Both the position numbers and the translations under genes were made by a program. Shown one piece after another: positions 6,192 through 30,143 of a stretch of DNA of 32,000 nucleotides. The notes under the pieces are model-generated. The model was not told where the DNA came from, searched no databases, and worked only from the letters and a program-made list of their open reading frames with translations. The stretch covers positions 1 through 32,000 of the forward strand of contig DAOVER010000022.1 of assembly GCA_030668875.1 (NCBI GenBank), in the 5' to 3' direction. Numbering within the stretch: position 1 is the stretch's first letter; each line of letters opens with the position of its first letter. The DNA is from Candidatus Heimdallarchaeota archaeon. GTDB lineage: Archaea; Asgardarchaeota; Heimdallarchaeia; Heimdallarchaeales; Heimdallarchaeaceae.

Positions 6192-9182
6192 TTATCTTCT
6201 TCTACGTTTGATAAATGCAGCTATGCTAGCAAGGGATACAATACCAAATAAAACAGCAATAGAAGATATTGGTGTTCCTCCAGGATTCTTAGTAGGAATA
6301 ATGTATTTTACATCTAGAGCATTCCCTCCAAGATCTACTGCCACAATCCGTAGAACATTATCACCTTCAATTAAACTAGATGTGAATATCACAAAAGTTC
6401 TTTCGGTATCAGAAACAATTGTGAAATCGATATTTTCGTCATTTAATTTCACGCTAAGTGATATAATTCTACTAATAGATTCACTAACTGTGAAATCCAA
6501 CCTTGCTACTTCTGGTTTTGTATAGTTGACCCATGTTCCAGTAAAAACTTCTGGAGGTGAATTATCATATGTGAATTCACTTTGATAAAAATCATCCTCA
6601 CTGGCTACTTTGAAGTTGTATACGGCTTCTGTAGTATAATCCATTCTATATGAATAATATCCTGTTGATACTTCCACTAGAGATACTGTTTCAGATTCTG
6701 ATCCTGCCACTGTGGTCCTTTTAATTGTCGTAGTTAGACTAGCTCCTGAATCAATTGAATGGATGTTAAGTGAAACACCACTAGCATCTTCAGTGAAGTT
6801 ACCAACAATGCGTTGTTTCGCAGTTAACCAGTTGAATATGTTTCTTGTTAGAATTGTGTTTTGTGTTTCACCAGGTGCGTAACCGTTTATGAACCCAGTT
6901 AAATCCATGATTGCGTTAGTCGTTGAAACAACTACTCTTCCTCCATTATTACTCTCATACACAGCTAATGTACCTTCGCTTTGTGTTCCAAACAATATTT
7001 GAGCACTGCCAGTAACAGACAATGTTGTTCCACGATGGTTTACTTTACTAACACCTTCAGTTAATCTGTGAGCAGTAACAACATTAACTTTTCCAGGAGG
7101 GTCATATGCATCGAAGTAATAATACTCATTAGACAAAGAAATCCCATAAGGTGTCAGGAAATCGTTTATCACTGTAAGATTATTACCTTCAACAATCGTT
7201 CCCCAACCTGTATATGTAACTTCAGTGTTACCTTGAGCATTTAAGTATAAACTTCCACCACCATCGACAAAGTCAAGGATAGCTTGGAATTCATCTTCAT
7301 AATTTGGATGAAGTGCCATATCTGTATAACCTGTAAGATTATCAAAGTAGTTGTATCTTGCGGGATCTGGCATCCAGATCGCATTATAGTCTTGAAGAAG
7401 TTCTGCAGTTATAACATTTGGAACACCAGTTATGTTCCATGAACGGAACTCATTCACTGCAATTCCATTAATAAGCAAATCTTTAGTTGCTTCGGCATAT
7501 TGACCAATAAGATTATCTGATCCTCTATTTGAGAATAAACTTGCCATAAGAATCTTGCCTTTGCCTTCTATGACTTCAATCTTAATATGAGTTGAAGCGG
7601 ATACTCCTCCAGTTGTCTCAAAAATAATATCGCCTTCATATATACCCAAAGTCTCATCATCTGCTACTTCAATTTCTACAAAGTAATTCTTAGACCAGTA
7701 ATCTGTCCATGATGTAGTATTCAGGTTGATTATAGAACTGATATTACCAGTAAGAACTGGCAAAATGTCTACGCTTGGTGTAGAGGATACGGATTGAACA
7801 AACAATTCTCCGTGAAATCCTTGAGGGAGTGTCTGATAATTTGAAATCGGAAATTCAGGGATTGCCCACATCATAACTGGGAACCCAGTACCATTTATAG
7901 GTGCATCTTCGATTAGTTGTAACGCTTGTGTTGCATCTGGTATGCCTGCTCCATATTGCAGATAATTAAACTTTCCAGGATCAGCTGATTTCATCATTGC
8001 TACTTTGATTAAACCTGGATCGTATGGGATAACAAGTGCTTTTAGAGCTTGGATAAGAATAGCACTTATTCCTGCTATGTGGGGCGCAGCCATTGATGTT
8101 CCACTTTTTGAAATATAGTCATTTGTACTTCCAATTCCGCAGCTCATTATACTTTCACCCGGTGCTGCTAAATTTGGAATTGGATAACCATCAATAGAAG
8201 GACCATTAGAACTAAAAGTCGATCTTAGTCCACCTTCTGTTGTAGATGCAACAGAGATAGTATTAGGGTCTGTACCTGGGGATCCTGAAGTATAATATCC
8301 ACCTTCTCCTCTATTCCCATTTGATGTTACAAAAACAATCCCTAGTAACATTAATTCTCTTGAAGCAAGTTCCCAAACGTCCCAACCTTCTTCATCGCCT
8401 CCACCCCAGCTTACATTTATTACATCTACACCTACAGATACACCATAATCATAGGCTGCAAGGAAAGCTTCGGTTGGAGCTGGACTGTCAAAACGAGCTA
8501 CTAAAAGTTCTGCTTCAGGAGCAACTCCAATATAATCAGGATTTCCGCTCCCATCTCCTAGCATAATACCAGCTGTGTGGGTTCCATGACCATCAGAATC
8601 TTCAATTGAAAGATCAGTTCTGGTAAATCCATAGGTGGGGCTTATGAAAGACTTACTTTCTATCATAATTCTTCCTACAAAATCGACATGACCTTGATTA
8701 ATTCCTGTGTCAATGTCATAAGCGACGATAGTATCTCCTTTATAACCCATATCCCAAAGAGGTTGGAGATTAAGTAAATCATTAGAAGAAACTGTTCTTC
8801 TAATTCCTTCTTTACTAGTATACAGAAGCTCTGCACCAGGTTCAGGTTGGATTTTGTAAAACCTTGAGTCAGTAACATCAAAAACTCCATCTACACCAGT
8901 GAAGCTACTAAGTGTAACTTTTTCGGTTAGTTTATCTTCAACTAAAACCATTTTCAAATTTGGAAAAGCTAGTTTGTATGAATTTGTTTCAACAAAACCA
9001 TTGTAAGCATTTTTTGATTCGAAATGCATAACAAATTTTCTCACAGAGTTAACAACTATTTTATCTCTAGGGAGACTTTCAATCGTTGCTGTATTAGTTG
9101 CAGGTTGAATTGTTGAACCTGTTTGAATTAGAAAAATGGTGAGTATGAAAAAACTAACACCTATGGTTAATTTTCTTTTCAT
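6192..9182 (-). CDS. Membrane-anchored S8 (subtilisin) serine protease with GIFT/GATase-like domain and C-terminal sorting tail, paralog 1
   Basis: Catalytic DIDTG, HGTHTAG, oxyanion SNGN and GTSMAAPH; signal-like N-terminus; TM plus KRRRR tail. Start moved from 9221 to ATG 9182 (MKRKLT, matching paralog MKRKAI, and 22 nt from a TATA-like box). Confidence 0.88.
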   Translation of the reverse strand: MKRKLTIGVSFFILTIFLIQTGSTIQPATNTATIESLPRDKIVVNSVRKFVMHFESKNAYNGFVETNSYKLAFPNLKMVLVEDKLTEKVTLSSFTGVDGVFDVTDSRFYKIQPEPGAELLYTSKEGIRRTVSSNDLLNLQPLWDMGYKGDTIVAYDIDTGINQGHVDFVGRIMIESKSFISPTYGFTRTDLSIEDSDGHGTHTAGIMLGDGSGNPDYIGVAPEAELLVARFDSPAPTEAFLAAYDYGVSVGVDVINVSWGGGDEEGWDVWELASRELMLLGIVFVTSNGNRGEGGYYTSGSPGTDPNTISVASTTEGGLRSTFSSNGPSIDGYPIPNLAAPGESIMSCGIGSTNDYISKSGTSMAAPHIAGISAILIQALKALVIPYDPGLIKVAMMKSADPGKFNYLQYGAGIPDATQALQLIEDAPINGTGFPVMMWAIPEFPISNYQTLPQGFHGELFVQSVSSTPSVDILPVLTGNISSIINLNTTSWTDYWSKNYFVEIEVADDETLGIYEGDIIFETTGGVSASTHIKIEVIEGKGKILMASLFSNRGSDNLIGQYAEATKDLLINGIAVNEFRSWNITGVPNVITAELLQDYNAIWMPDPARYNYFDNLTGYTDMALHPNYEDEFQAILDFVDGGGSLYLNAQGNTEVTYTGWGTIVEGNNLTVINDFLTPYGISLSNEYYYFDAYDPPGKVNVVTAHRLTEGVSKVNHRGTTLSVTGSAQILFGTQSEGTLAVYESNNGGRVVVSTTNAIMDLTGFINGYAPGETQNTILTRNIFNWLTAKQRIVGNFTEDASGVSLNIHSIDSGASLTTTIKRTTVAGSESETVSLVEVSTGYYSYRMDYTTEAVYNFKVASEDDFYQSEFTYDNSPPEVFTGTWVNYTKPEVARLDFTVSESISRIISLSVKLNDENIDFTIVSDTERTFVIFTSSLIEGDNVLRIVAVDLGGNALDVKYIIPTKNPGGTPISSIAVLFGIVSLASIAAFIKRRRR

Positions 9183-9204
9183 GCCTTTTGCTATGATTAT
9201 ATTG

Positions 9205-9220
9205 TTCATAAAGTTTTTCA
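9205..9220 (-). promoter_or_regulatory. BRE/TATA-like element for S8 paralog 1
   Basis: Minus strand GAAAAAC-TTTATGAA, 22 nt before ATG 9182; same box and spacing as the paralog. Confidence 0.6.
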
Positions 9221-9256
9221 AAAGCCAATGTAGTAGAATCCTTTACAAATAATTGA

Positions 9257-9284: not shown

Positions 9285-12281
9285 CTATTGTTTTTTCCTT
9301 CTAATGAATGTTGCAATTGCTGCTAAAGATAATATCCCTAAAAGCATTGCAAACGTTGAAACTGGGGCTCCGGGTGATTTAGTAGGAATGTTGTAATGTA
9401 CGTCTAGAGTGTTTCCAGCAAGGTCTACTGCAACAATATGAAGATCATTATCTCCGTCAACTAAACTGGATATAAATATTACAAACGTTCTTACTTTTCC
9501 AGAACCTAAGGTACTAATACTTTCCCCATTTAATTCTATAGAGATTGAAAGAATATTTGATATATAGTCTTTGACTTCAAAGTCCAATCTTGCTACTTCT
9601 GGTTTTGTATTATTGGTCCAACCTTCAACAATTACTTCAGGGGGCGTTGAGTCAAACAAGAAATTTGCAATGTAAACGTCATCACCACTTTCAGCTTTGA
9701 AAATATATGCAGCTTCGTCTCCAAAAGTAAGTCTATATGAGTACATGCCTGGAGAATCTTCGGTTAATGTGACTGTGCCAGTTGTTTCACCAGTTGGAGA
9801 GACAATTTTAACGCTTGCAGAAACAGTAGCGGATGTATTAAGGCTTTCAATGGTTATGTCTGCTCCTGTAGAATCTTGAACATATGAACCAACGATTTTT
9901 TCAGATGCTGTAAACCAGCTGAAGATATTATTGACGAATACCTTGTTTTGTGTTCCGGTATTATAGGCATCCTTGTATCCTATTGTATCCAAGTGGAAGT
10001 TTGTTGTAACAACAATTACTCTTCCTCCTGCATCATTTTCATAAGCAGCTGTTGTTCCTTTATTATTCCACTTCGTTAGTATTTTGGCATCATCTCCAGC
10101 AACCGTCAAAGTAGTTCCATAATGATCAATTTTTATCACACCTTCAGTGAGCGCATGCGTTATTATTACACTTGATGTTGCAACAGCACTGAAGTCAAAG
10201 AGATCCTCCGAGACTGTTATATCATAGGGATCAATTAGATTATTGACCATTGTAATATTATTACCCGCGATGATAGAAGTTCCTAAGTGATCTATTTGTT
10301 CTGCACTTTGTCCAAGTAAATCAATGAACAATCCTCCGCCATTCGCAACAAAATTCTGAATTGCCATTATCTCTGATGCAACCAAAGGTCTTGCTGTTAC
10401 TTTATCTGCGTTTTGTGATGATTGATCGATTAAGATCAGATTTGGAAAGTCATAATCGAAAGGATCAGCAAACCAAATAGCATCATAACCTACTAATTCA
10501 GCATCAGTAATCAGGCCATGTCTATATTCATTTATTGCTATACCTTTATCCATGAAATCCTCTATTGCTATATGATATTGACCAAGATAACCATCAATAG
10601 ACCATGAAGTGTGTTGTTTAGCATAATATATTCTGCCCTTACCTTCAGTTACAGTTATCTCAAAGTAAGTGCTATCTTGAACTCCTTGAGATGTTTCGAA
10701 AACGATATTACCACTATAGATCCCTAGTGCTAGATCTGTTGGAATATCTAAAACAAACTTATAGAATTTAGTCCATGGTTCAGAATAAGGCACTACTTCA
10801 ATAGATCCTATGAGAGGTAAATCACCAGTTAATATTGGTGTTAAATCTTCCCATGGAGTTGATGAAACTGATTCAACAAAGAATTCATGGTGCCATCCTT
10901 GTGGGGCAACTTTAAGGTCGGTTGTAGGCATGTTCTCAATAGCATACAGAAGTGTAGGATAACCTGAAGCGTTTGTGGGGGCATCAATAATTAATTGCAA
11001 TGCATTACCAACATCAGGGATTCCTGCTCCTCCTCCTAAGTGATCCATCAATCCAGCATCAGCTGATAACATTAAAGCTGCTTTAATCATTCCAGGATCG
11101 TAAGGAATAGCAAGATCTTTGAGTGCCTCTATCATAACTGCTGCGGCACCTGCAATATGAGGAGCTGCCATGGAAGTACCATCTTTAGAAATGTAACCAT
11201 TAGTTCCTCCTTTATCACAACTAACTATATCTACTCCTGGGGCTGCAATATCAGGTTTATAAAATCCGTCTGCAGTTGGACCTAGAACACTAAAAGAAGC
11301 TAAATTGCCACTTGCGTCAACTGCTGCAACACTCATGACTTGAGGAGCTGAACTAGCAGATCCTACAGATATATAATCTCTGGTATCTCCAGGGTCATAG
11401 TTTCCAGCTGAATTAGAGATGAACATTCCTTCACCCCATAGGATTTGTACAAGAGTTTCCTCTAAATCCATACCTTCTTGATCACGTGAACCGAGACTCA
11501 TGTTAATAACGTCAATCTCTCCTACAGTTGCTTCATACTCTAAAGCGTATTCTAGTGCAGCTAATATTCCCCAAATTGGTAGCTCAGCTGCTGCTCCCCC
11601 TACTCGTCCAACAAGAATATCTGCTCCTGGAGCCATTCCTTTGTAACTAGGATTAGCATTTCCTGCTCCTGCTGCAGTACCCGCGGTATGAGTGCCATGA
11701 CCATTTTCATCATTAATGGAAGTTGTTGTATATGAAAATCCATATGATTTATTGACGAATGACATACTCCCGGGAAGTATTTTCCCGGTGAAATCTAAAT
11801 GATCTTGATTAATTCCTGTATCAATATCATATACAACAGTTCCTGTGCCATCGTAACCCATATTCCATACGCCCGAAACATTAATTTGATCAGCTGTAGC
11901 GATAGTCAATTTGATGTTATCTAGAACTGGACGGGATGAAATTGGTTCTATAAACTGAAATTTAGTATTTGTTATGTCAAAAATTCTTGTAACTCCCACT
12001 AAATTCAGTAATTCTATTTTATTGCTCAACATATCTTCAACTGCAACCATTTTCAGATATGGAAATGCTAACATGTAATTCCCATCATTGATATAATTAT
12101 TGAAATCTTCTTCTGAATCGAAGAGTACGATAAAATCTCTCATCGAATCAATAAAACCCTCTTCAGAGGGTGAGGTTTCAACAATTGCACCTTGTGTTGG
12201 TGATATCATGACAGCACTAATCTGTATCATGAAAATAGTAACTAAAAGAAAGCTGAAACTAACAATTGCTTTTCGTTTCAT
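9285..12281 (-). CDS. Membrane-anchored S8 serine protease, paralog 2
   Basis: DIDTG, HGTHTAG, SAGN, GTSMAAPH; collinear with paralog 1 (shared DPG.IK.A.M.SA, FVxSVSSTP, NxTKPEVARLDF); TM plus RRKKQ tail. Confidence 0.9.
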   Translation of the reverse strand: MKRKAIVSFSFLLVTIFMIQISAVMISPTQGAIVETSPSEEGFIDSMRDFIVLFDSEEDFNNYINDGNYMLAFPYLKMVAVEDMLSNKIELLNLVGVTRIFDITNTKFQFIEPISSRPVLDNIKLTIATADQINVSGVWNMGYDGTGTVVYDIDTGINQDHLDFTGKILPGSMSFVNKSYGFSYTTTSINDENGHGTHTAGTAAGAGNANPSYKGMAPGADILVGRVGGAAAELPIWGILAALEYALEYEATVGEIDVINMSLGSRDQEGMDLEETLVQILWGEGMFISNSAGNYDPGDTRDYISVGSASSAPQVMSVAAVDASGNLASFSVLGPTADGFYKPDIAAPGVDIVSCDKGGTNGYISKDGTSMAAPHIAGAAAVMIEALKDLAIPYDPGMIKAALMLSADAGLMDHLGGGAGIPDVGNALQLIIDAPTNASGYPTLLYAIENMPTTDLKVAPQGWHHEFFVESVSSTPWEDLTPILTGDLPLIGSIEVVPYSEPWTKFYKFVLDIPTDLALGIYSGNIVFETSQGVQDSTYFEITVTEGKGRIYYAKQHTSWSIDGYLGQYHIAIEDFMDKGIAINEYRHGLITDAELVGYDAIWFADPFDYDFPNLILIDQSSQNADKVTARPLVASEIMAIQNFVANGGGLFIDLLGQSAEQIDHLGTSIIAGNNITMVNNLIDPYDITVSEDLFDFSAVATSSVIITHALTEGVIKIDHYGTTLTVAGDDAKILTKWNNKGTTAAYENDAGGRVIVVTTNFHLDTIGYKDAYNTGTQNKVFVNNIFSWFTASEKIVGSYVQDSTGADITIESLNTSATVSASVKIVSPTGETTGTVTLTEDSPGMYSYRLTFGDEAAYIFKAESGDDVYIANFLFDSTPPEVIVEGWTNNTKPEVARLDFEVKDYISNILSISIELNGESISTLGSGKVRTFVIFISSLVDGDNDLHIVAVDLAGNTLDVHYNIPTKSPGAPVSTFAMLLGILSLAAIATFIRRKKQ

Positions 12282-17922: not shown

Positions 17923-18717
17923 ATGAGTGAAGATTTTGTACGTTGCACAAATTGTGGTAATCTTAATATAGCAGGTACTTCCAAATGTGTTTTCTGTGAC
18001 ACAGATATTGATGCAGATGCTGAAGTGTTTAAAGAACATGCAGATGATCCAAGCGTATCAGAATTGCCTGGAGTACCTCCTGTAGTTAAAGAAGCTACAA
18101 CTTCTGATTATCCAGCCATGCCTGCAATGCCAGAAATACCAGATGCAGAAATTAAAGATAAGAAAAAAGATTCAAAGAAAGAAAAGATAACAAAACCAAC
18201 ACAATTGAAAGGGTACTCCTCTGGTATGAAATTTCTCTATATGACACTAATCTTTATCGCAGTATCAATACTTCATTATCTATTGAATCTTCTTGTAGCA
18301 CTAGCTTCATATGATCCAACGGACCCAAATATCGTTCTATCATTGAATATTCCAGCTAATATAAGTTCTATCCTTTCTATTACAGGATCTTCAGTAATAA
18401 TTGGTGTTCCCTTCGCAATTATTATAGGTTACATTCTAGGAAAATCAATTAGAAAATTCACACAAAAGAAGAAAGAAATAATTACTTGGTTGATTTATGC
18501 AATTATCCTTGATGTCGTTGTAAATCTAGGAATTGCTGCAATATTCGTCTTCGTGTTCAACTTTGAAGACTTATATTTTGTCTATCTTGTCGGAGCAGTT
18601 TTCATCTTCATAATATTCAATATTATAACACTATTCCTACCATTCTTGGTTGGTACTCATTTGATTTATTATAATATTGATAAAATCTTCTTTCCCAAGA
18701 AGTATTCAGGAAATTGA
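17923..18717 (+). CDS. Zinc-ribbon domain membrane protein (about 4 TM helices)
   Basis: N-terminal CTNCG-x9-CVFC, Pro/acidic linker, Lys-rich stretch, then about four hydrophobic helices; TTTTTAAT box 22 nt upstream. Confidence 0.75.
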   Translation: MSEDFVRCTNCGNLNIAGTSKCVFCDTDIDADAEVFKEHADDPSVSELPGVPPVVKEATTSDYPAMPAMPEIPDAEIKDKKKDSKKEKITKPTQLKGYSSGMKFLYMTLIFIAVSILHYLLNLLVALASYDPTDPNIVLSLNIPANISSILSITGSSVIIGVPFAIIIGYILGKSIRKFTQKKKEIITWLIYAIILDVVVNLGIAAIFVFVFNFEDLYFVYLVGAVFIFIIFNIITLFLPFLVGTHLIYYNIDKIFFPKKYSGN

Positions 18718-21398: not shown

Positions 21399-21833
21399 TT
21401 ACAGTTTTTTTGTTTTCATCCTAGCAAAAGCGGAATTGAGCATTTTACCTAGTTCAGTTATTAGTACGGTTGACTTTGTATTTCCTCTTTGACCATTAGA
21501 TTCGAACAATCCATAATCTCTGAATTTTGTTAGGTTCCACTTTATCATTGAAAAAGTGAAATCTAATTTATGCGATAAAATCTCTGCTAATTTATTCAAG
21601 GAAAGAGATTTCTTATCTAGCTGTTTTATAGCTTCAATGAAAATTAATTTCTGCTTATTTTTCATTAAGTCAATAAAAAGATACAAACTTTTGTTCAAAA
21701 TCTCATCCATTAAGAGCAAGTAATTTTCAAGCTCAAAAATCCTCTTTTGCGCAAAGATGATCCCTTCTTCTGTATTTTCGATTCTTCCCAGCTGTAGTTC
21801 GGAAATTATTGCTGGCTTCAACAAAACGTTCAC
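21399..21833 (-). CDS. Putative winged-helix DNA-binding protein
   Basis: C-terminal SLNKLAEILS...MIKWNLTKFRDYGLFE...VLITELGK resembles a wHTH with wing; divergent from the ATPase operon. Confidence 0.55.
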   Translation of the reverse strand: MNVLLKPAIISELQLGRIENTEEGIIFAQKRIFELENYLLLMDEILNKSLYLFIDLMKNKQKLIFIEAIKQLDKKSLSLNKLAEILSHKLDFTFSMIKWNLTKFRDYGLFESNGQRGNTKSTVLITELGKMLNSAFARMKTKKL

Positions 21834-21982: not shown

Positions 21983-22030
21983 TTTTATAAGTGAAAAATA
22001 ACATTAAACAAATTGAGTAAAGTGTGAGGA
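21983..22030 (+). promoter_or_regulatory. TATA box and SD for the ATPase/coiled-coil operon
   Basis: TTTTATAA at 21983-21990; GTGAGG before ATG 22036. Confidence 0.5.
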
Positions 22031-22035
22031 TAATA

Positions 22036-23799
22036 ATGACAAGTGAAAAAAGTAATTTTCTACAACCTTGCCAACCTGATGAATTCTATGGTTCACGAGA
22101 AATAATTAACAATTTCACAGAGCAGATTGGCAAAATCAAACAACAGGAAGAAAATATTCGTTCATTTTTGATTATAGGTGATGAAGGAACTGGTAAAAGT
22201 TCATTATTGTCTAAATTATCCAAATCAATTTCTGGAAGAAATGACATAGTGCATGATGTGAAGTTAATTCCTGAAGAAGATGAACTCCTAAGTTTTTTCA
22301 AGATGTGGAAGAATAAAATTGATGAATTATCACCTGATTGGCGTTCATTATTGGGAAAAGTAGGGAAAAAGAGACTAGGTGATGATCTTCCCCAATTAAA
22401 TCAAACATTAAAAATTCCTTCCCAAAAATCCTACACAGATCATTATGTTGACTTATTCTTCGATAGTCTTGATAAATTAAATTTAAAATTACAAGAAACA
22501 AATACGTTTCTTTATTTCTTCTTTGATAATCTACAGCTGTTTAAGTTATTGGATTTGCAAGAGTTCTATCCGATATTCTCAAGAATTGTAAAAGGTGTTA
22601 ACGAACGAAAATACAATTTTGTTATTGTTACAACATTTCATGAAAAATATCTTTATGATTTTGATTACGAGAAGAATTTGACTGAAGGTGCAAATATCAT
22701 AAAAATCGCACCGCTAACTGCTTCAGAAGCAGAAATATACCTTAGACGAAAGGTTCCAATGTTGATAAATAAGGGGATTTTAGAATTAATTACAAATAGT
22801 CACCGCTCTTTCTTCGACTTGAATCTAGGTGTTGCATTCATATCCTCCGATTTACAGATTGAGGATTTTGTTGAGAGGAATATACCTTCATATTTTGAGT
22901 TAACAGATGCTGAAGAAGCAGCTATTATAGAAATGACCTCATATAATGAAAATGTTTTCCCCTTGGAGCAGTTAACTGTTTATGTGTCACATGATACACT
23001 AAAGGGTTTAGAGGAAAGGGGGATTTTATGGCTAGGGTCACAATATGCAAGATTGGTTCAAGATTCGTTAATGACTGCAATGAAATTTAGGTTAACCTTA
23101 TTCGGACCTTTACCAACGTTAATGGTACAATTGGATTCGATTTTAAGCGATCTTAAAAATCACATTGCTCCAGCTGATAAAATTATAGAAACCGTTGAAA
23201 ACCTTACTCTGAAAATCAGGGATAGATTAGCAGATTTTGCTATTGCCGCGAAACTCAATAAAATTACTAAGATGTGTATAGAAAAGGAAATGTATCAACG
23301 AGCATACGATTTTGCAATTATTAATGCCCATCAATTTGAGCAAATAAGTGAGTTAGAACAAGCTGGTGGAGTTTGTGAATCAATAGCAAGAGAATTTGAA
23401 GAAAGAAACTATTATTTTGCTGCAAAACTCTATGTGAAGTCTGCAAATTACTATAGTGCTGTCGAAGAAGATTTGAAAGCAAAAAGATCTTACTCAAGAG
23501 CTTCTGATCAATTTGAAAAAGTGGCAATGAGTCTTCCCGTTGAGAAGAATGAATATGCTGTAAGATGCTATTTGAAATGGAGTTTAGATTGTAATAAAAA
23601 TATGGGTGATGTAGAGAATTTCGAAAGGATACGTAAGAAAGCTATTGATTTATTTAATCCTGAAAGCATACATCACAATTATTTCAAAACAATGATATTT
23701 AAGCAAGAAGAACTAACTATTGAACAAACAGTAGAATCAAAAAAGGAAGGAATAGAAGAAATTTCTTTGGAAAATATTGAAAAGGAATTAGAATTTTAG
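22036..23799 (+). CDS. STAND/AAA-like P-loop ATPase with probable wHTH and TPR/SNAP-like helical C-terminus
   Basis: FYGSREII N-terminal motif, Walker A GDEGTGKSS, Walker B-like LYFFFDN, APLTASEA, wHTH-like LTDAEE...LKGLEERGIL, and Ala/Tyr-rich helical repeats (AAKLYVKSANYY, AKRSYSRASDQF). Confidence 0.75.
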   Translation: MTSEKSNFLQPCQPDEFYGSREIINNFTEQIGKIKQQEENIRSFLIIGDEGTGKSSLLSKLSKSISGRNDIVHDVKLIPEEDELLSFFKMWKNKIDELSPDWRSLLGKVGKKRLGDDLPQLNQTLKIPSQKSYTDHYVDLFFDSLDKLNLKLQETNTFLYFFFDNLQLFKLLDLQEFYPIFSRIVKGVNERKYNFVIVTTFHEKYLYDFDYEKNLTEGANIIKIAPLTASEAEIYLRRKVPMLINKGILELITNSHRSFFDLNLGVAFISSDLQIEDFVERNIPSYFELTDAEEAAIIEMTSYNENVFPLEQLTVYVSHDTLKGLEERGILWLGSQYARLVQDSLMTAMKFRLTLFGPLPTLMVQLDSILSDLKNHIAPADKIIETVENLTLKIRDRLADFAIAAKLNKITKMCIEKEMYQRAYDFAIINAHQFEQISELEQAGGVCESIAREFEERNYYFAAKLYVKSANYYSAVEEDLKAKRSYSRASDQFEKVAMSLPVEKNEYAVRCYLKWSLDCNKNMGDVENFERIRKKAIDLFNPESIHHNYFKTMIFKQEELTIEQTVESKKEGIEEISLENIEKELEF

Positions 23800-23809
23800 G
23801 TGAAAAAAA

Positions 23810-25258
23810 ATGTCTGAAAGAGTATCTAAAGATCTAGATAAAATTAAAAAAGAAATAGAAAATTTAGAAGGTCAAGCAACCAATTTCAAAGAATCATTGG
23901 AAACTCTGCTTGAATTACAGAAATATTATCAAACAATGGCAACATTGATACAAAATAAGTTCATATCTTTAAATGAAAATATTCGAACCTTGATTGATGA
24001 TAATAAGACTAATCTTGAAAGCAATATAAAAGATAGATCGGAAAAAGATCAAACCTTAGTAAATGAGTGGACAGAAACTCAATCAAGTACAGTGTGTGGT
24101 AAATTAGAAGATACCACAAATATGCTGGTTTCATTACAAGAAACTGTTCTTTCTACATTGGAAAAGGGAAAAACTGAGTTTAACAAATATTCTGATAACT
24201 TTGAAGAGAAAATTTCAACGATTTTAAGTTCTCATGAGCAAGATATTAATAGATTATCCAATAGTCAAGTAAACACATTAAGAAAGGCAATTACAACTGT
24301 TAAGGAAGATGTTTCAGAAATAAAACAGAACAATCTTGCAACATTTGAGAAAAACGCAGAGGAAATGAAGAATCAGCTTGAATCTAATATCAATATAACC
24401 GAGAACATAATGAAAGAGTCTATAGAACATCTTCGCTCTGAATATGGTGATAAACTTACAGATAATATGGAATCAATTTTTGAGAGTTTTAATAGAATAA
24501 AAAGTGAACTAAGGCAACTAGTAGAGAACGCTGTTAAGAGAATACAGACAGAATTATCTGGAATTTCAGGAACTATGGATAAATACCTTATTGATGAAAT
24601 CGCAAAGATTCAAGAGGTTTTAGCAGAATATGAACTAGGTATGATTGATGTTAATGAAGTTGCTCTTTCTAACTTCAATGAATCCAAAGCATCAATGATC
24701 AGTATGTATGAGCAATTAGTCAAACAACAAATAGAATCTCATGGAAACGAACTGAAAACCTTTCAAGAAAATTTCAATAAAAATGCTGATGACGAATTAG
24801 TTTCATTTTCCAAACAATCAGATGAAGTGAAAGAAGAAACTAAGAATATCATTACTGCTGAAAAAAATGATATTAAACAAAAGTTAACTGAAATTCAAAC
24901 AACAGTAACAGAGGATGCTGCTAAAACTAAGGAAAAAGCTGAATCAGAAATTCTCCAAAAAATTACGCTGCTAGAAGAAGAAATCGAGAGATTAAAGGCT
25001 TCAATCGGTCAAACGAGCTCTCAAATCACAACTCAACTTGAGGCTAATGAAAGAGAGAATTTAGCAAATATTACTTCACAATCTTCCAAGATCAAAAGTC
25101 AAATAGCAGAGACACAGCAATCCATAATGACGGATTTAGATGTAGAAGCTAAAGAGCATGTTAAAAAGGCAGAAGATGCTGAGAAAAGAAAGCGAGATTT
25201 GATAAATAGAATTGAAAGATTAGAAAGGAGTATAGAATCTATCAAAAATGAACTTTAA
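23810..25258 (+). CDS. Proline-free long coiled-coil protein with hendecad periodicity
   Basis: 482 aa with no Pro; E/K/Q/N/S/T-rich; hydrophobics every 11 residues; AGGTGA SD; 10 nt after the upstream stop. Confidence 0.85.
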   Translation: MSERVSKDLDKIKKEIENLEGQATNFKESLETLLELQKYYQTMATLIQNKFISLNENIRTLIDDNKTNLESNIKDRSEKDQTLVNEWTETQSSTVCGKLEDTTNMLVSLQETVLSTLEKGKTEFNKYSDNFEEKISTILSSHEQDINRLSNSQVNTLRKAITTVKEDVSEIKQNNLATFEKNAEEMKNQLESNINITENIMKESIEHLRSEYGDKLTDNMESIFESFNRIKSELRQLVENAVKRIQTELSGISGTMDKYLIDEIAKIQEVLAEYELGMIDVNEVALSNFNESKASMISMYEQLVKQQIESHGNELKTFQENFNKNADDELVSFSKQSDEVKEETKNIITAEKNDIKQKLTEIQTTVTEDAAKTKEKAESEILQKITLLEEEIERLKASIGQTSSQITTQLEANERENLANITSQSSKIKSQIAETQQSIMTDLDVEAKEHVKKAEDAEKRKRDLINRIERLERSIESIKNEL

Positions 25259-25270
25259 AATGTGATAAAA

Positions 25271-28200
25271 ATGGAATCAACATTAGAAAAAATAGGCTTA
25301 TCGCAAGATGAAATTCAAGTTTATTCAACAGTAGTTCAATTTGGAACTAGAACCATTGGACAGATCCAATCCTATTATAAACAGTCTGCTGAAATTATTT
25401 CTTCTGCTTTGGATAGTTTAGTTACTAAAGGATACATAAAAGAAATTAAAGCTAGAAACACTGAGGGGACATCATATTTTATCCCATTACCTCCGCAAAT
25501 TAAGCTGACTGAAGATGTATCAATGAGGCTTGAAAATGAGCTCAAAGCTTTAAGTGATGATGTGAAGAATGATTGGAATAACACTATGAAGACCTTTCGA
25601 GGTCAATTATCTACATTTCATAACCAAATAACAGAATCAACTGACAATCATAGTCAAGAGCTAAGTGGTATTTCAAATCAATTTCTGGATTCTGTTTCTG
25701 AAGTAGTAACAACTGGCAAAAACGATATTCAAGAAGCAATTACAAAGATTAAAACAGATACGGGAACCATTTCCACTACACACAGTGACAATCTGAAGAA
25801 ATCTATACAAAGAATCCAAGATAATATCTCTTCAACTTTTGATACAACAATTCATCGAGTTGGGGAGCATCATGAGAATTTTAAGACAAAGATTCAAGAA
25901 ACATACACAAATCTAGAAACCGAACATACTGCAAGAGCACAAGGACAACTCGATGGTATAATAGAAAAAGTTGAAGGTATAAAAATTAACGTAAATACAC
26001 TTCTTGAGCAGTTTAATTCAAAAGCAGACGAGAAAAAATCTCTGATTGTTGAAAATACAAGTGAGGTTAACAAGAAACTCATCAGTGATTCTAAACTAAT
26101 AACCAAGGAATCAACAACAAAATCGATAGAAACAATTAACAAAATAGTTAGTGATTATCAAACTAATTTAGACGAATATCAGACAAAAGTAAAAAGCATT
26201 CTATCTTCGTTAAATGAAGAGTTAAAGAAGTTGGAAGACCTAACCTCTAATAGAATTAAAGATGCCATTGAAAAAGCAAAGGATTCAGCAATATCTGTTT
26301 TAGGACAAAATGAAACACAATTCCAAGATCTTTTGAGCAAAATTAAGACCCTGTCAGTCGAGAAACTTGGTGAATTAATCTCTCAAACTGAAACTACAAC
26401 ATCTGATATGAAAAATAAGCTCGTTGGGAACTTGAATGATTACCTGAATGATTTCGAGAAAAATAGTGATAGTCTATTAACACTTCTTCAAGAAGGGATA
26501 AATAGTGGTTTAACCCTCTTTGAGGATACTCTATCCAAATCCATTGAGAATGTAAGTGATCAGATAAAGACCTTCTTTGGAGAAATTATGGCTGATTTTG
26601 ATGCGTTGAAATTATCTATAAATGAAGATTTACAAAAAAGTCTCACCGATTTTGTGAATTTATCATCAAGTCAAAAAGAAGATATGAACAAGAAAATCAA
26701 GGAATTAAATTCATCTTTATCAACTTCTATTCAAGAATCTATTCAACAAAGTAACACAAAACTGACTGATGTTGCAACAGAGATAAGTACAGAAGCAGAT
26801 AAAGCTTTAGCTTCTATAAAGAAAAAGGAACAAGCATCTCTCAAGAAACTTGAGACTGATGTTTTGGCAAACCAAGAAATAATGGTGACATTCTTATCTA
26901 ATACAATATCAACATTTGAGTTATCTTCATCAGAATATGTTACTGATATATCTTCAACTATTGATAAATATTCCAAAAAAATGAATGAGAGCAAGAAGCA
27001 GTTTACATCCACTCACAAAGAGTTCAAAGAAAATTTCCTTGCTCATCTTAACGAACTTAAAACAACTGCTTTATCAGATATTAAAGAGAATATTGATGAT
27101 AATACAAATACAGTAAACAATTTCATGGATACTAAAAATGAGGAAATTAAAACAAGAATTGTATCATTTTCAGAAGATTTTGCTAAGAAAGGTAGAGACG
27201 TTAGAGATGAAGTACCTAACTTAGTTCAAATTAATTATCAATCAAGCTTGGAAAGTGTTCAAGAACTGGATGATCAATTTAAAACCGCGGTTGCCAAACT
27301 GACTGAAATTAATGAAGCCTTCCAAGATCTAGATCAGAAGCAATTACAGAAGGTTTTTGGAAAAGAAGCTGGCCCCCGAATGGCTCATTTAATCGGAACC
27401 ATGAGTGCTGATGTTAATAATTTGAAGTATAATACGGAAAGTAAAATTGACGAAGTTATTAAGACATTCACTAGCTCAATGGAGAGTCTTTCAACAGACA
27501 TTTTCAACAAAATGAATAATCATATAGACGAACTCTCTCAATTATCTGATTCAGAAGTAAAAGATATTAGTCAAAAAATAGAAGAAGCCAAAGGTGAGAT
27601 TACAAATCAACTTAAAGAATCACTCAATAGCATGAAGGAACACGTCACTACTATTTTCACTACCTATGAAACTAGTTTTGCTGAATTACAAGATACCAAT
27701 ACTAAAGCTCTTGGAAGTATTGTTGGTAATGAGGATGATTCAATAAACTCTTTGAAGAGTAAGGTTGAGGAAGCAACAACTAATTTAACAAATCATATAA
27801 CAGAAATCACCGCACCTGAAAAGGTTCAAGGTTTATATCAAGGACACATTGATACAGTAACAAAGAACTCTAATTCATTTGTTTCAGAAGTAGCAAAATT
27901 AATTGTTAATGAAAAAGAGAAAATTGATACATCCAAGAATACAATTCTTCAAACAATGAATGATTCTGAACAGGAAATGAGTAAAAAATTAGCTGATACT
28001 TCAAAGGAATTAGAAAAAACAAATAAGCTAATTACAGATAACGCTACCAACTCTTTCAAAGCAATTATAAACAAAACTGGTAAATATCTAGATGGACTGA
28101 TACAAGCAGGAGAGACGATTTCAGATGATGAGGAAGGAGGCGTTGAGAAAACAAAAATGCAATTACTCATTGAAGAAGGATTGCAAGGATTGCTTTCATC

Positions 28201-29686
28201 TAAAGAAGAGATTTTCAGCATAATGCGAGCGAACAATGATGAAGTCATGCTAAAACTACAAGAGACGATTAAAATAAATATTGATGAACACTCAGCGCTT
28301 GTAACAAATGTATCTTCTTCGATGGACAATAACATGAAAATCCTCCAATCAGAGTTTGAGGGGGCAAAAACTGCTTTAGATACTGATGTGTCCGTTACTC
28401 TAGATGAAGCTTCAGCAAGTTATGGTCAACAAACAAAAGTAGTGGGTGATGAAATCCAAAATGTTGTTGATCAAGAAGTACAAGCGTTCTTGGAGAATTC
28501 AGAAGGTTTGTTAGCAGATTTAAGCGTTTCACCTGAAAAAGCATCATCACTAGATAATGCAATTAATAAAGCAAAAACAGAACTCAATAAAATTACTGAA
28601 GCTTACCCCGAGTGGTTAGATGTTGATAACACTAAATATGCATCAGATCTTAATTCAGCAATAAGTGATTATCATACTCATGCACAAACAATTTTAGATG
28701 AATTATACGAAGAAACTAGAAAAGACCTGGAAAAAGTCTATGCGAACATTTCAAGTGAATATGATAAAAGTATAACTTCTGTTGAAGAAGCATTTGAGAA
28801 AGAAGGCAATGACTTCAAGTTGAATGTTAGTCATCAAATTAATTCGCTAGTATCAAATTCAGATTCCAATTCTTCAGCTTTAGTGACAAATATCCAAAGT
28901 ACAAAAGATTCGTTACTTGATGCTTCATCTTCAGTTCATGAGATAGTAGATGTAGATCTTAAAGGAGTTGAGAAAGCTGTTGAAGATATCTTTGAGACAT
29001 TCAATGGAGTTATAGTTGATAAAATGGAAAAAGCTTTGGAAAATTCTAAAGCATCTAAATCAACCAAAGAAGAATATGCATCAAAACTGCAAACATTCAA
29101 AGAAGAATTCATCTCAAATTCATTAAAGGAAATAGATAACGTAGATGTGAATATCACAGGTATTCTAAAATCAATCCCATCAAAGATCGACATTGTTTTG
29201 GAAGCTACAGGAGAATCAATGAAATTACTTAGAAGTGTTCTCAATTTAGGTAAGGGTGTTGAACCTGCCCCTATTGAAGACATCTGGCTAGTACATGGAA
29301 GAGAACAAACATTTTCCACGATGATGTCACTTCTAAGGAATACAAAATCTTCTGCTACTATTATCAGTCCTGCTTTGAGCTGGATTGATGCTGAATTCTT
29401 AGATACTTATGGAAGGAAACTAGAAATAGTAACCAATACTACAACACATACTGAAGCCGATAATACTATCTTAGATAAGTTACTAGGAATGGGGAATGTC
29501 ATAGTGAAAGATGACCATCAATTGACTGCTTATATGGGCACAAGAGATGGTATTGAGGAAGGATTTCTAGGACATACTACAGCATCTGGAGAACCTGTTT
29601 TAATCGTAACTTTCAATGAAGATCTGGTTAAAGAAATAACTAAAATCTTTTATGAATTCAGAAGTAAAAAACAAATCAGAAAATAG
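25271..29686 (+). CDS. Giant TrmB-like protein: N-terminal wHTH, ~1250-aa helical rod, C-terminal PLD-like/TrmB effector domain
   Basis: LEKIGLSQDEIQVY...LDSLVTKGYI...YFIPLPP is a TrmB wHTH pattern. C-terminal IWLVHGREQ...LLRNTKSSATIISP...RDGIEEGFLG resembles the TrmB middle/PLD-like fold. ATG 25271 preferred over GTG 25262. Confidence 0.8.
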   Translation: MESTLEKIGLSQDEIQVYSTVVQFGTRTIGQIQSYYKQSAEIISSALDSLVTKGYIKEIKARNTEGTSYFIPLPPQIKLTEDVSMRLENELKALSDDVKNDWNNTMKTFRGQLSTFHNQITESTDNHSQELSGISNQFLDSVSEVVTTGKNDIQEAITKIKTDTGTISTTHSDNLKKSIQRIQDNISSTFDTTIHRVGEHHENFKTKIQETYTNLETEHTARAQGQLDGIIEKVEGIKINVNTLLEQFNSKADEKKSLIVENTSEVNKKLISDSKLITKESTTKSIETINKIVSDYQTNLDEYQTKVKSILSSLNEELKKLEDLTSNRIKDAIEKAKDSAISVLGQNETQFQDLLSKIKTLSVEKLGELISQTETTTSDMKNKLVGNLNDYLNDFEKNSDSLLTLLQEGINSGLTLFEDTLSKSIENVSDQIKTFFGEIMADFDALKLSINEDLQKSLTDFVNLSSSQKEDMNKKIKELNSSLSTSIQESIQQSNTKLTDVATEISTEADKALASIKKKEQASLKKLETDVLANQEIMVTFLSNTISTFELSSSEYVTDISSTIDKYSKKMNESKKQFTSTHKEFKENFLAHLNELKTTALSDIKENIDDNTNTVNNFMDTKNEEIKTRIVSFSEDFAKKGRDVRDEVPNLVQINYQSSLESVQELDDQFKTAVAKLTEINEAFQDLDQKQLQKVFGKEAGPRMAHLIGTMSADVNNLKYNTESKIDEVIKTFTSSMESLSTDIFNKMNNHIDELSQLSDSEVKDISQKIEEAKGEITNQLKESLNSMKEHVTTIFTTYETSFAELQDTNTKALGSIVGNEDDSINSLKSKVEEATTNLTNHITEITAPEKVQGLYQGHIDTVTKNSNSFVSEVAKLIVNEKEKIDTSKNTILQTMNDSEQEMSKKLADTSKELEKTNKLITDNATNSFKAIINKTGKYLDGLIQAGETISDDEEGGVEKTKMQLLIEEGLQGLLSSKEEIFSIMRANNDEVMLKLQETIKINIDEHSALVTNVSSSMDNNMKILQSEFEGAKTALDTDVSVTLDEASASYGQQTKVVGDEIQNVVDQEVQAFLENSEGLLADLSVSPEKASSLDNAINKAKTELNKITEAYPEWLDVDNTKYASDLNSAISDYHTHAQTILDELYEETRKDLEKVYANISSEYDKSITSVEEAFEKEGNDFKLNVSHQINSLVSNSDSNSSALVTNIQSTKDSLLDASSSVHEIVDVDLKGVEKAVEDIFETFNGVIVDKMEKALENSKASKSTKEEYASKLQTFKEEFISNSLKEIDNVDVNITGILKSIPSKIDIVLEATGESMKLLRSVLNLGKGVEPAPIEDIWLVHGREQTFSTMMSLLRNTKSSATIISPALSWIDAEFLDTYGRKLEIVTNTTTHTEADNTILDKLLGMGNVIVKDDHQLTAYMGTRDGIEEGFLGHTTASGEPVLIVTFNEDLVKEITKIFYEFRSKKQIRK

Positions 29687-29693
29687 TTAACCT

Positions 29694-29712
29694 ATTTTCA
29701 TTTTTTTATTTT
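29694..29712 (+). terminator. Oligo-T terminator ending the three-gene operon
   Basis: TATTTTCATTTTTTTTATTTT shortly after TAG 29686. Confidence 0.5.
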
Positions 29713-29768: not shown

Positions 29769-30143
29769 GTGCTAGTATTGTGGATAATGCAGCCATGTCC
29801 TTTACACAAAGAAGTTGACAACGAAACCTACTGCATTCTGGATGACGAATTTGATGATGTTATACTAATTAACTTTTTACACCCATTAGATTTGCAAAAA
29901 ATTGACTTAAGTGAGTTTCAAAACCCATCATACTGCATTAATGCTGTGATAGCTGATGAAGAGGATTTTGTTTTCTGCCCTACAAAGAATAAAAGAATAA
30001 AGATTGGAGATATGTCTATACCTCGCAAAATTTACATGAATGTGAGAGAAGTACTTCTATTTATGGATCCTGAAGCGCAAAGCTGTTCAGAATGTCTGTA
30101 CAAAGCTTTAATTGCGATGAAAAAAAGTGTAGAAGGGTTGTAG
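29769..30143 (+). CDS. Small Cys-rich hypothetical protein; start uncertain (29769, 29778 or 29787)
   Basis: ORF fills the gap; CPLH, YC, YC, FCP and CSEC motifs; TTTTTATG box upstream. Confidence 0.6.
   Translation: MLVLWIMQPCPLHKEVDNETYCILDDEFDDVILINFLHPLDLQKIDLSEFQNPSYCINAVIADEEDFVFCPTKNKRIKIGDMSIPRKIYMNVREVLLFMDPEAQSCSECLYKALIAMKKSVEGL

Follow-up and report, generated by a model that had tools for sequence, protein, structure and literature searches.

A three-gene locus of a heimdallarchaeon predicted to encode a STAND NTPase, a hendecad rod and a giant rod protein with TrmBL2-type ends

Genes and signals at the locus

Among known prokaryotes, Asgard archaea stand closest to eukaryotes, and little is known of how they organise their DNA and their cell interior. 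Here we describe a three-gene operon at positions 22036-29686 of a 32,000-nucleotide stretch of DNA from Candidatus Heimdallarchaeota archaeon (contig DAOVER010000022.1 of assembly GCA_030668875.1, positions 1 to 32,000 of the forward strand; hereafter the window). The operon encodes a STAND-like ATPase (gene 1), an all-helical rod (gene 2) and a giant rod protein with TrmB-like ends (gene 3, also referred to as the giant). It is a conserved single-copy operon, annotated as hypothetical, in which a putative switch ATPase stands beside two proteins that would each be tens of nanometres long. From the analyses set out below we consider it very probable that the locus specifies a TrmBL2-type head with a folded arm, a hendecad rod and a STAND NTPase devoid of an effector domain. 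The window corresponds to contig C99 of a 3.2-Mb draft genome that is 92% complete, the nearest relatives of which are deposited as Candidatus Heimdallarchaeota or Heimdallarchaeaceae metagenome-assembled genomes. A sequencing-run search placed the stretch in four marine-sediment DNA runs of a single study, two of which may be its source, and listed no RNA run for it.

The interval 22036-29686 is filled by three open reading frames (ORFs) on the plus strand, at 22036-23799 (gene 1), 23810-25258 (gene 2) and 25271-29686 (gene 3). The ATG codons at 22036, 23810 and 25271 are the likely starts, since the ortholog alignments begin there; the ORF listing also offers upstream GTG codons at 22024 and 25262. 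The intergenic gaps measure 10 nt (23800-23809) and 12 nt (25259-25270). A purine motif resembling a Shine-Dalgarno sequence, GTGAGG, lies ahead of gene 1 at 22024-22029, and similar motifs precede gene 2 (AGGTGA, overlapping the gene 1 stop codon) and gene 3 (GTGAT). A TATA-like box, TTTTATAA (21983-21990, + strand), was read from the sequence approximately 45 nt 5' of the gene 1 ATG as a putative promoter, and oligo-T runs (29695-29712, + strand), putatively terminator-like, were read just past the gene 3 stop codon. This layout of three co-oriented genes with 10-12 nt gaps, a ribosome-binding-type motif before each, a TATA element in front and oligo-T behind had been reported in a preliminary description of the locus made from the sequence alone, and it was found again here; the composition given there, in which a STAND-like ATPase is joined by a hendecad coiled coil and by a giant TrmB-rod protein, was borne out as well by the analyses below, which include AlphaFold2 (AF2) models. 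ORFs of 482-1471 codons at 31-33% G+C, with orthologs in dozens of genomes, make a chance origin impossible. Searches of the window for tRNA genes and Rfam families returned zero matches. Public records name the proteins variously as 'hypothetical protein', 'ATP-binding protein', 'Orc1-like AAA ATPase domain-containing protein', 'helix-turn-helix domain-containing protein' and 'sugar-specific transcriptional regulator TrmB'.

Gene 1 encodes a STAND NTPase

The assignment of gene 1 (22036-23799, + strand; 587 amino acids, aa) as an effector-less STAND NTPase draws on Pfam, AF2, Foldseek and its orthologs. The protein matched Pfam AAA_16 with an E value of 5.5e-9 and 37.2 bits (cut-off 32.6), and its AF2 model, with a mean predicted local distance difference test score (pLDDT) of 87.4, comprises a nucleotide-binding domain (NBD) starting at approximately aa 20, a helical domain, a winged helix and ten repeat helices. 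When the full-length model was compared with known structures by Foldseek, the best match was 6mfv, a STAND protein with a TPR sensor, and further matches included Avs3, Avs4, Avs5, SAMD9, CED-4, Apaf-1, MalT and archaeal ATPases. A scan with the single ATPase protein recovered close relatives only, and a profile search of 1.84 billion representatives recovered about 33 full-length gene 1 clusters, below which the score falls to proteins of ~380 aa that carry nSTAND1/AAA_16 and are the nearest sequence outgroups.

In a 14-sequence alignment, the glycines of the Walker A motif GDEGTGKS (GxxGxGKS; aa 48-55, 22177-22200, + strand) were invariant, and its lysine was replaced by arginine in three of the 14 orthologs (L016, L020 and L025). 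The Walker B aspartate, D164 of an hhhhD motif at aa 160-164 (codon 22525-22527, + strand), is followed by asparagine, leaving no second acidic residue; across the alignment the aspartate was retained in at least 90% of sequences, the residue after it being N, D, S, C or K, and the Helarchaeota form of the ATPase was also without the aspartate. The helical domain and winged helix (aa 229-356, 22720-23103, + strand) were delimited from the AF2 secondary structure and from the full-length Foldseek alignments to STAND proteins. The proline of a GxP-like motif was retained in 10 of 14 orthologs and lost in this protein and its family, with the fold nonetheless present. The sensor region (aa 358-552, 23107-23691, + strand) consists of ten consecutive TPR-like helices with pLDDT above 90. 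A Pfam search of gene 1 gave no TPR match, and the look-alikes proposed by a language model were AAA_16+TPR proteins.

The alignment and the AF2 model leave no room for an effector domain in gene 1, there being only a disordered 35-aa tail past the repeats. This tail (23692-23796) is acidic, with pLDDT of 31-39, and terminates in an L-E-K-E-L-(E/D)-F motif that is kept in the four aligned Heimdallarchaeaceae genera and absent from other lineages. The motif may be a docking peptide.

Gene 2 is a continuous hendecad helix

Gene 2 (23810-25258, + strand) encodes an all-helical hendecad protein of 482 aa, as established by Fourier analysis, register and orthologs. The core residues of gene 2 gave a single Fourier peak at 3.66 residues with a power of 8.5, and the rod of gene 3 peaked at 3.66-3.67 with powers of 7.5-16.7. 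The maximum among 300 shuffles was 2.8 at any tested period and 1.5 at the hendecad period, and the same analysis gave no heptad signal (3.5) in the rods of either gene. The hendecad character claimed in the preliminary description is thus well founded, with periodicities far above those of the shuffles. The 11-residue register of gene 2 is unbroken and proline-free over aa 39-450, with hydrophobic residues at positions a, d, e and h forming a narrow coiled-coil stripe. Orthologs at the equivalent locus position in other lineages range from 404 to 770 aa, and those of 767-770 aa hold one register across ~700 residues. Gene 2 is a single continuous hendecad helix of ~60-70 nm.

Two other arrangements were considered and rejected. 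A hairpin form of gene 2 was set aside for this genome, as no dip in periodicity occurred at the midpoint in 11 orthologs. Pairing of gene 2 along the arms of the giant was set aside on length: proteins of 482-485 aa occur beside arms of ~620 or ~520 aa and one of 770 aa beside arms of ~460 aa, so that the lengths do not co-vary and full-length rod-to-rod co-assembly is unsupported.

In the middle of gene 2 (24530-24600, aa ~241-262) lies a stretch, R-I-Q-x-E-L-S-G-I-x-x-T-M-D-K-Y-L-I-D-E-I, that is strongly conserved across the family and leaves the hendecad register intact. It may represent a binding site.

Gene 3 carries TrmBL2-type end domains

Gene 3 (25271-29686, + strand) encodes a protein of 1471 aa with the domain architecture of TrmBL2 and a giant hendecad insert. 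Its first 75 residues (25271-25495, + strand) form a TrmB-type winged helix-turn-helix (wHTH), residues 8-74 matching PF01978 with an E value of 5.2e-8 and 33.1 bits (gathering score 25.6), and this domain is conserved in all 17 orthologs examined. The winged helix has a net charge of 0 and the whole protein is strongly acidic.

At the other end, the last 230 residues were modelled by AF2 as a helix followed by an alpha/beta domain (domain pLDDT 88-93), a PLD-like domain (29180-29683, + strand) that lacks the HKD histidine. The eight best PDB matches of the C-terminal domain in Foldseek were all TrmBL2 (5bpi, 5bpd, 5bqt and 5box; E 1.9e-9 to 6.5e-8), followed by PLD/Nuc proteins and by TrmB (2f5t/3qph, E ~2e-6). 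Pfam gave no match for the C-terminal domain of this protein; among the orthologs, one of 13 matched Regulator_TrmB (E 0.013) and one matched FilR1_middle (E 0.0034). A profile of the C-terminal 230 aa, searched against PDB sequences, returned only apolipoprotein and designed-helix noise. Taken with the positive Foldseek result, this places the kinship of the domain with TrmBL2 at the level of the fold only. A lysine and an R-D..E motif are conserved in the domain, and the histidine of HxK is present in only one of 13 orthologs; its loss in the other 12 indicates that this is no nuclease. The AF2 model shows no sugar-binding barrel of the TrmB kind, gene 3 ending ~170 aa past the rod, where TrmBL2 ends. 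The precomputed annotation of the giant lists PF28217.1 (PF27150.1 or PF07464 for relatives); PF28217 could not be resolved.

The gene 3 rod most likely folds back at its midpoint

Between the end domains of gene 3 lie ~1,230 residues of hendecad helix, which the sliding Fourier phase divides into two arms. The N-arm (aa 82-698, 25514-27364, + strand) contains ~56 hendecads in essentially one register, equivalent to ~91 nm as a helix, and both this protein and its orthologs at the level of the order hold the phase constant from residue 82 to 698. The register then breaks at 698-707, at the apex sequence KVFGKEAGP (aa 694-702, 27350-27376, + strand), which lies at the midpoint of the rod and holds a conserved K-x-F-G-K-type motif. 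The C-arm (aa 707-1303, 27389-29179, + strand) is again a hendecad helix, in about five segments with register shifts near aa 855, 960 and 1095. The net charge over both arms is -83. No transmembrane segment was found in the protein, the maximum 19-residue Kyte-Doolittle hydropathy being 0.87. A basic patch at the apex was initially considered and was dropped, the apex being only neutral to mildly basic.

Three sets of observations bear on how this rod is arranged. Firstly, when the midpoint was defined as the point halfway between the wHTH and the PLD-like domain, the first major break fell between 6 aa before and 20 aa past it in 12 orthologs ranging from 1,110 to 1,806 aa. In the same orthologs, in which the N-arms measured 434-809 aa, the lengths of the N-arm and the C-arm were correlated with r = 0.985 and a slope of 0.92.

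Secondly, the giant varies in length within the genus by paired blocks. In 18 species of the genus it measures ~1,257-1,273 aa rather than 1,471, and 17 database relatives comprised long forms of 1470-1473 aa, short forms of 1256-1261 aa and one protein of 1433 aa, with no single-deletion intermediate among the 17. Relative to the long form, the congeners of 1256-1261 aa lack a 106-aa block of the N-arm (aa 441-546, 26591-26908, + strand), as delimited by MAFFT, tblastn boundaries and length classes, together with a 108-aa block of the C-arm (aa 829-835 plus 850-950, 27755-28120, + strand), as aligned by MAFFT. The two blocks lie at similar distances from the apex, ~144-249 aa for the N-arm block and ~139-260 aa for the C-arm block, and the shortened N-arm still runs in one unbroken register. 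As the outgroup genera carry the long form, the short giant is derived.

Thirdly, once smoothed, the conservation of eight orthologs shows mirror symmetry about residue 687-700, with a raw correlation of r = 0.58. After detrending, the mirror correlation was 0.43-0.72, gaps being either scored or ignored; other centres gave at most 0.30, and parallel-shift controls gave r of at most 0.16. The trough of conservation shared by the two arms coincides exactly with the two blocks that the congeners have lost.

A different arrangement is suggested by shorter relatives of the giant. This genome also encodes two paralogs, of 747 and 766 aa, in both of which a TrmB wHTH is followed by a hendecad rod and a PLD-like end. 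The gene for the 747-aa protein (contig C58, L046:6098-8341, + strand) lies between an RFC-like AAA+ gene and a Dna2-like gene, and that for the 766-aa protein (contig C68, L047:7430-9730, - strand) adjoins a gene of the HhH-GPD (endonuclease III-type) family. The 747-aa paralog holds one register over aa 80-585 with no central break, from which it follows that straight forms probably exist in the family. Such a straight form would be a parallel dimer of ~180 nm that has its winged helices and its PLD-like domains at opposite ends, the central break of the giant serving only as a flexible hinge. It would also agree with TrmB and TrmBL2, in which the helix past the winged helix pairs in parallel between subunits (3qph, 5bpd). 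For the giant itself, however, a parallel extended rod accounts for none of the three observations: the break follows the exact midpoint over a two-fold range of lengths, two deletions of equal size are equidistant from it, and the conservation is mirror-symmetric where the parallel-shift controls are flat. We therefore regard the extended dimer as very unlikely for gene 3.

On these sequence comparisons, the most likely arrangement is one in which the gene 3 rod doubles back halfway along its length, forming an arm of ~90 nm (617 residues at ~0.15 nm each) with wHTH and PLD-like domain side by side at the base. The preliminary description had given DNA-binding-type and PLD-like heads on a long rod; both heads stand, and the giant is most likely a folded-back arm with the two together rather than a linear rod with one at each end. 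Once folded, the giant may be a hairpin of two helices, or may dimerise into a four-helix bundle. A complex prediction for the N-terminal 190 aa and the C-terminal 282 aa of the giant, with 17-row alignments, scored 0.25 against a mark of 0.32, a value that counts neither for nor against the fold-back.

Beside the 747-aa paralog, on contig C58 (L046:8764-11748, + strand), the Dna2-like gene encodes a nuclease-helicase of 994 aa with PD-(D/E)XK, Dna2 and AAA_11/AAA_12 domains and a C-terminal RING-type zinc finger (zf-RING_2, E 3.6e-5), a fusion that is unusual for an archaeon.

Distribution of the three genes

The preliminary description had proposed that the gene order be checked for conservation. 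Of 40 related genomes, 39 yielded both the ATPase and the giant, on one contig and in unchanged order, and all four families of the order are represented among them; the single genome without both is an 80%-complete assembly of 1.4 Mb. Gene 2 was recovered by sequence search in 31 of the 40, being too divergent in some, and at every locus inspected an ORF of fitting size and composition lay between the ATPase and the giant. The order of ATPase, helix and giant is also kept in several other Asgard classes, and the records that carry it include those labelled Ca. Heimdallarchaeum aukensis, Ca. Freyarchaeum deiterrae, Ca. Borrarchaeum, Jordarchaeales and Wukongarchaeota.

Variants of the locus occur in other lineages. 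Loci of the Helarchaeota type encode the ATPase and a giant of 1110-1123 aa, with gene 2 missing. In family f5, which belongs to the same class, the ATPase is accompanied by a pure hendecad helix of 718-721 aa (L038, L039 and L040), and the giant, of 1539-1545 aa, lies 8-18 kb off on the other strand; four to six paralogs with PLD-type ends, of 326-1408 aa, are present in these genomes as well. Two further metagenomic contigs carry the ATPase-helix pair only.

When 399 Asgard genomes were searched with the ATPase profile, 83 proved to carry the gene, each in a single full-length copy that in a few drafts is divided between contigs. The ATPase is consistent within families, being present throughout some, in one of 135 genomes of the best-sampled family and in none of the 12 genomes of family f6, where the profile search gave no full-length match. 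A single-sequence search had suggested absence from both f5 and f6, sister families within the class, which the profile search overturned for f5: the ATPase is present in 10 of 22 f5 genomes at the strict E cut-off and in 12 of 22 when full-length matches are counted.

The operon is flanked upstream by housekeeping genes (an epimerase, DnaK, DnaJ, a DUF61 protein and two M24 peptidases) and downstream by GAPDH. This phyletic pattern, with housekeeping flanks conserved within the family, looks like vertical descent with losses and not like a mobile defence island. The three proteins thus appear to make up a self-contained Asgard module that is passed on vertically.

A role in anti-virus defence was also weighed, in which an Avs-like STAND sensor would act with a PLD-like or DNA-binding effector and a Zorya-like tail. 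Avs3, Avs4 and Avs5 are among the fold matches of the ATPase, PADLOC ZorA models match the rods with E values down to 1.4e-20, and nucleases of the PLD fold are common defence effectors. The PLD-like domain, however, is without its catalytic histidine in 12 of 13 orthologs, the ZorA matches cover only the tail of the model and the MotA-type membrane domain is absent, and the PADLOC models that match the ATPase do so no further than the P-loop. Moreover, the ATPase is single-copy and family-consistent, and is flanked by DnaK/DnaJ, M24 peptidases and GAPDH in conserved order, which is unlike a defence island. A defence function is thus a remote prospect.

The giant could alternatively be viewed as the tail tape-measure protein of a virus remnant, as PHROG tape-measure families match parts of the rod (E 3e-14 and 2e-10), together with a weak match to Pfam Tape_meas_lam_C. 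These matches, however, span 130-320 of ~1,600 profile positions, all of them in helical repeat; the ATPase and gene 2 have no PHROG match, no virus genes lie within the 32-kb window and the locus is syntenic across an order. We consider a viral origin next to impossible. The matches to ZorA, tape-measure proteins and apolipoproteins are confined to the repeat helices. A match to a characterised system such as SMC or Rad50 or to a phage tape measure, which according to the preliminary description would speak against a separate three-gene system, was found only in the form of low-scoring hits (SMC, Rad50, ZorA and tape-measure) to coil segments.

Neighbouring genes

Elsewhere in the window, a Ras/Roc-type small GTPase gene (1832-2587) and an actin-fold gene with ALP_N and archaeal MreB-like_C domains (3541-4587), both typical Asgard features, lie ~18-20 kb upstream of the operon. 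Two tandem subtilase (Peptidase_S8) genes, each encoding ~1,000 aa, occupy 6192-9221 and 9285-12281 on the minus strand. Three ORFs of 264, 144 and 124 aa had no Pfam match (17923-18717; 21399-21833, minus strand; and 29769-30143); the first sits after DnaJ, in a position kept in congeners, and encodes a Cys-rich N-terminus.

A possible role in nucleoid organisation

The likeness of the end domains to TrmBL2 offers a functional context. TrmBL2 makes stiff nucleoprotein filaments and stalls SMC complexes at chromosomal domain boundaries, and it was recently shown to be a roadblock to SMC loop extrusion (PMC11840125). By analogy, we tentatively propose that the three proteins may form a nucleotide-switched, DNA-anchored scaffold, spacer or bridge that organises the nucleoid. 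In such a module, the short pairing helix of a TrmBL2-type protein would be replaced by two length-matched hendecad arms of ~600 residues each, pairing antiparallel about the conserved apex near residue 695 to give an acidic stalk of ~90 nm with both end domains at its base. The heads would bind DNA in the manner of TrmBL2, with the acidic stalks pointing away from the DNA. The STAND ATPase, made up of just a sensor and a putative oligomerising core, would act as a nucleotide-state switch or oligomerisation hub, its TPR region recruiting, clustering or releasing the rods, and ATPase, rods and heads together would then constitute the DNA-anchored scaffold, spacer or bridge. So understood, the module would be neither a sugar-responsive regulator nor a defence system. 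We hold the functional part of this reading to be slightly less likely than not, and architecture and function taken together to be about as likely as not. The overall interpretation of the preliminary description is in this respect partly supported, and a filament or tether that contacts DNA under control of the ATPase is plausible.

Two other functions can be envisaged for the same parts. The first would be that of a split MalT, in which the STAND ATPase would sense a ligand through its TPR region, oligomerise and cluster the TrmB-type heads at specific promoters, the rods being mere linkers. Most members of the TrmB family regulate transcription (PMC4158304). MalT, a STAND transcription activator, is among the fold matches of the ATPase, and the ATPase is effector-less with a wHTH protein encoded in the same operon. 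A simple regulator of this kind, however, would leave the 90-nm arm without a role, and the giant keeps a near-constant length of 1473-1489 aa across the order at ~20% identity. Its C-terminal domain resembles ligand-free TrmBL2 and is unlike sugar-binding TrmB; the neighbours of the operon vary among lineages, and no conserved target genes flank it. A split regulator is thus unlikely.

The second would be a cytoskeletal or tethering element acting away from DNA, in which the hendecad rods would form filaments like those of the bacterial intermediate-filament-like Scy/FilP proteins, or tethers of the golgin kind. The TrmB-derived ends would then serve protein contacts, with assembly under the control of the ATPase. 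Filament formers of the Scy/FilP type are typically hendecad coiled coils, neither the strongly acidic rods nor the winged helix is basic, and gene 2, which has no DNA-binding domain, is the partner that stays beside the ATPase in family f5. Against this, the TrmB wHTH scores above the Pfam threshold and is conserved in all 17 orthologs examined, and no membrane-binding or known cytoskeleton-binding domain was detected by Pfam or hydropathy. Weakly and circumstantially, the two paralogous TrmB-rod genes adjoin genes of DNA metabolism. We rate a cytoskeletal role away from DNA as quite unlikely.

Several findings nevertheless weigh against a DNA-anchored, nucleotide-switched scaffold, or limit its form. 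DNA binding rests on homology, the winged helix being of net charge 0 in a strongly acidic protein. The Walker A arginine in three of 14 orthologs and the Helarchaeota form, which is also without the Walker B aspartate, indicate that ATP hydrolysis is not universally required; from these residues it appears unlikely that hydrolysis is essential in all lineages, and a binding switch or a scaffold role would fit better. The C-arm has three or four register breaks and the N-arm none, so that pairing is not uniform and the arms would not form a simple two-helix coil along their whole length. The unlinked giant of f5 and the Helarchaeota loci without gene 2 show that the three parts are not obligatorily linked. 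Lastly, 316 of the 399 Asgard genomes gave no match to the ATPase profile, among them 134 of the 135 that represent the best-sampled family; the module is therefore dispensable and not universal.

A bolder version of the nucleoid-organising scaffold can be formulated, which we regard as highly improbable. The module would then be an Asgard-specific chromosome organiser whose heads coat or mark the DNA, whose 90-nm stalks stand out as a brush, and whose ATPase gathers the tips of the stalks and the gene 2 rod into nucleotide-switched hubs. If this were true, the resulting hub-and-spoke or brush layer could bridge distant DNA or hold the nucleoid apart from the cytoplasm, and would give the archaea most closely related to eukaryotes a boundary of protein around their DNA. 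If the module is architectural in any form, it would be nucleoid-organising machinery of a new class, and its phyletic distribution would bear on how complex cells were before eukaryotes.

Comparison with known systems

Neither the operon nor giant TrmB-rod proteins were described in any paper recovered by full-text literature searches, in agreement with the statement of the preliminary description that no named system of such a composition is known. The system is without a named counterpart, though each of its folds is known. The fold-back evidence for the gene 3 rod and the two shorter paralogs in this genome are new.

The ATPase follows the order of STAND proteins with a TPR sensor (6mfv, MalT, Avs and Apaf-1/CED-4), namely a P-loop NBD, a helical domain, a winged helix and a helical-repeat sensor. 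It differs from them in having no effector at either end and in that the Walker A lysine and the GxP motif are not universal. Unlike them, it is also conserved as a single copy, in an operon with rods and with no defence or apoptosis context.

The rods share long 11-residue repeats with a, d, e and h cores with bacterial proteins of the Scy/FilP type and with tetrabrachion, to which no sequence relationship of the rods was detected. Scy, FilP and tetrabrachion have neither TrmB-type end domains nor an ATPase partner. From the tail of ZorA in the Zorya system the rods differ in lacking a MotA/ExbB domain or a hydrophobic segment, and there are no ZorB, ZorC or ZorD partners; ZorA models match the rods probably because both are long non-heptad helices.

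The closest counterpart of the giant is TrmBL2, the chromatin protein of Thermococcales. Both have an N-terminal PF01978 winged helix, a helix and a catalytically dead PLD-like domain, and neither has a sugar barrel. TrmBL2 measures ~260 aa, with a pairing helix of a few dozen residues. In gene 3, in contrast, the linker is a hendecad helix of ~1,230 residues that is apparently folded back, and the gene, unlike that of TrmBL2, shares an operon with those for a STAND ATPase and another rod. TrmBL2 is a filament-forming binder of double-stranded DNA, a property that gene 3 may or may not share. The giant thus passes the domain tests for a TrmBL2-type member of the TrmB family and fails those of size and linker, which makes it a new architectural form.

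In geometry, the giant is like SMC, Rad50 and MukB, as its terminal domains would be joined at one end of a long antiparallel coil whose arms co-vary in length and carry paired insertions or deletions. Its heads, however, are a wHTH and a PLD-like domain and not ABC ATPase halves, and the ATPase of the module is a separate STAND protein. Its repeat is hendecad and not heptad, and in place of a hinge domain or zinc hook it has the short K-x-F-G-K apex. SMC and Rad50 models scored 11-14.5 bits against the giant, with cut-offs of 567-1087 (NCBIfam SMC, 14.5 versus 567). Without ABC heads, the giant is not a member of the SMC/Rad50/MukB group despite the similar geometry, and it would instead represent a new protein plan, in which an SMC-like geometry is built from entirely different parts.

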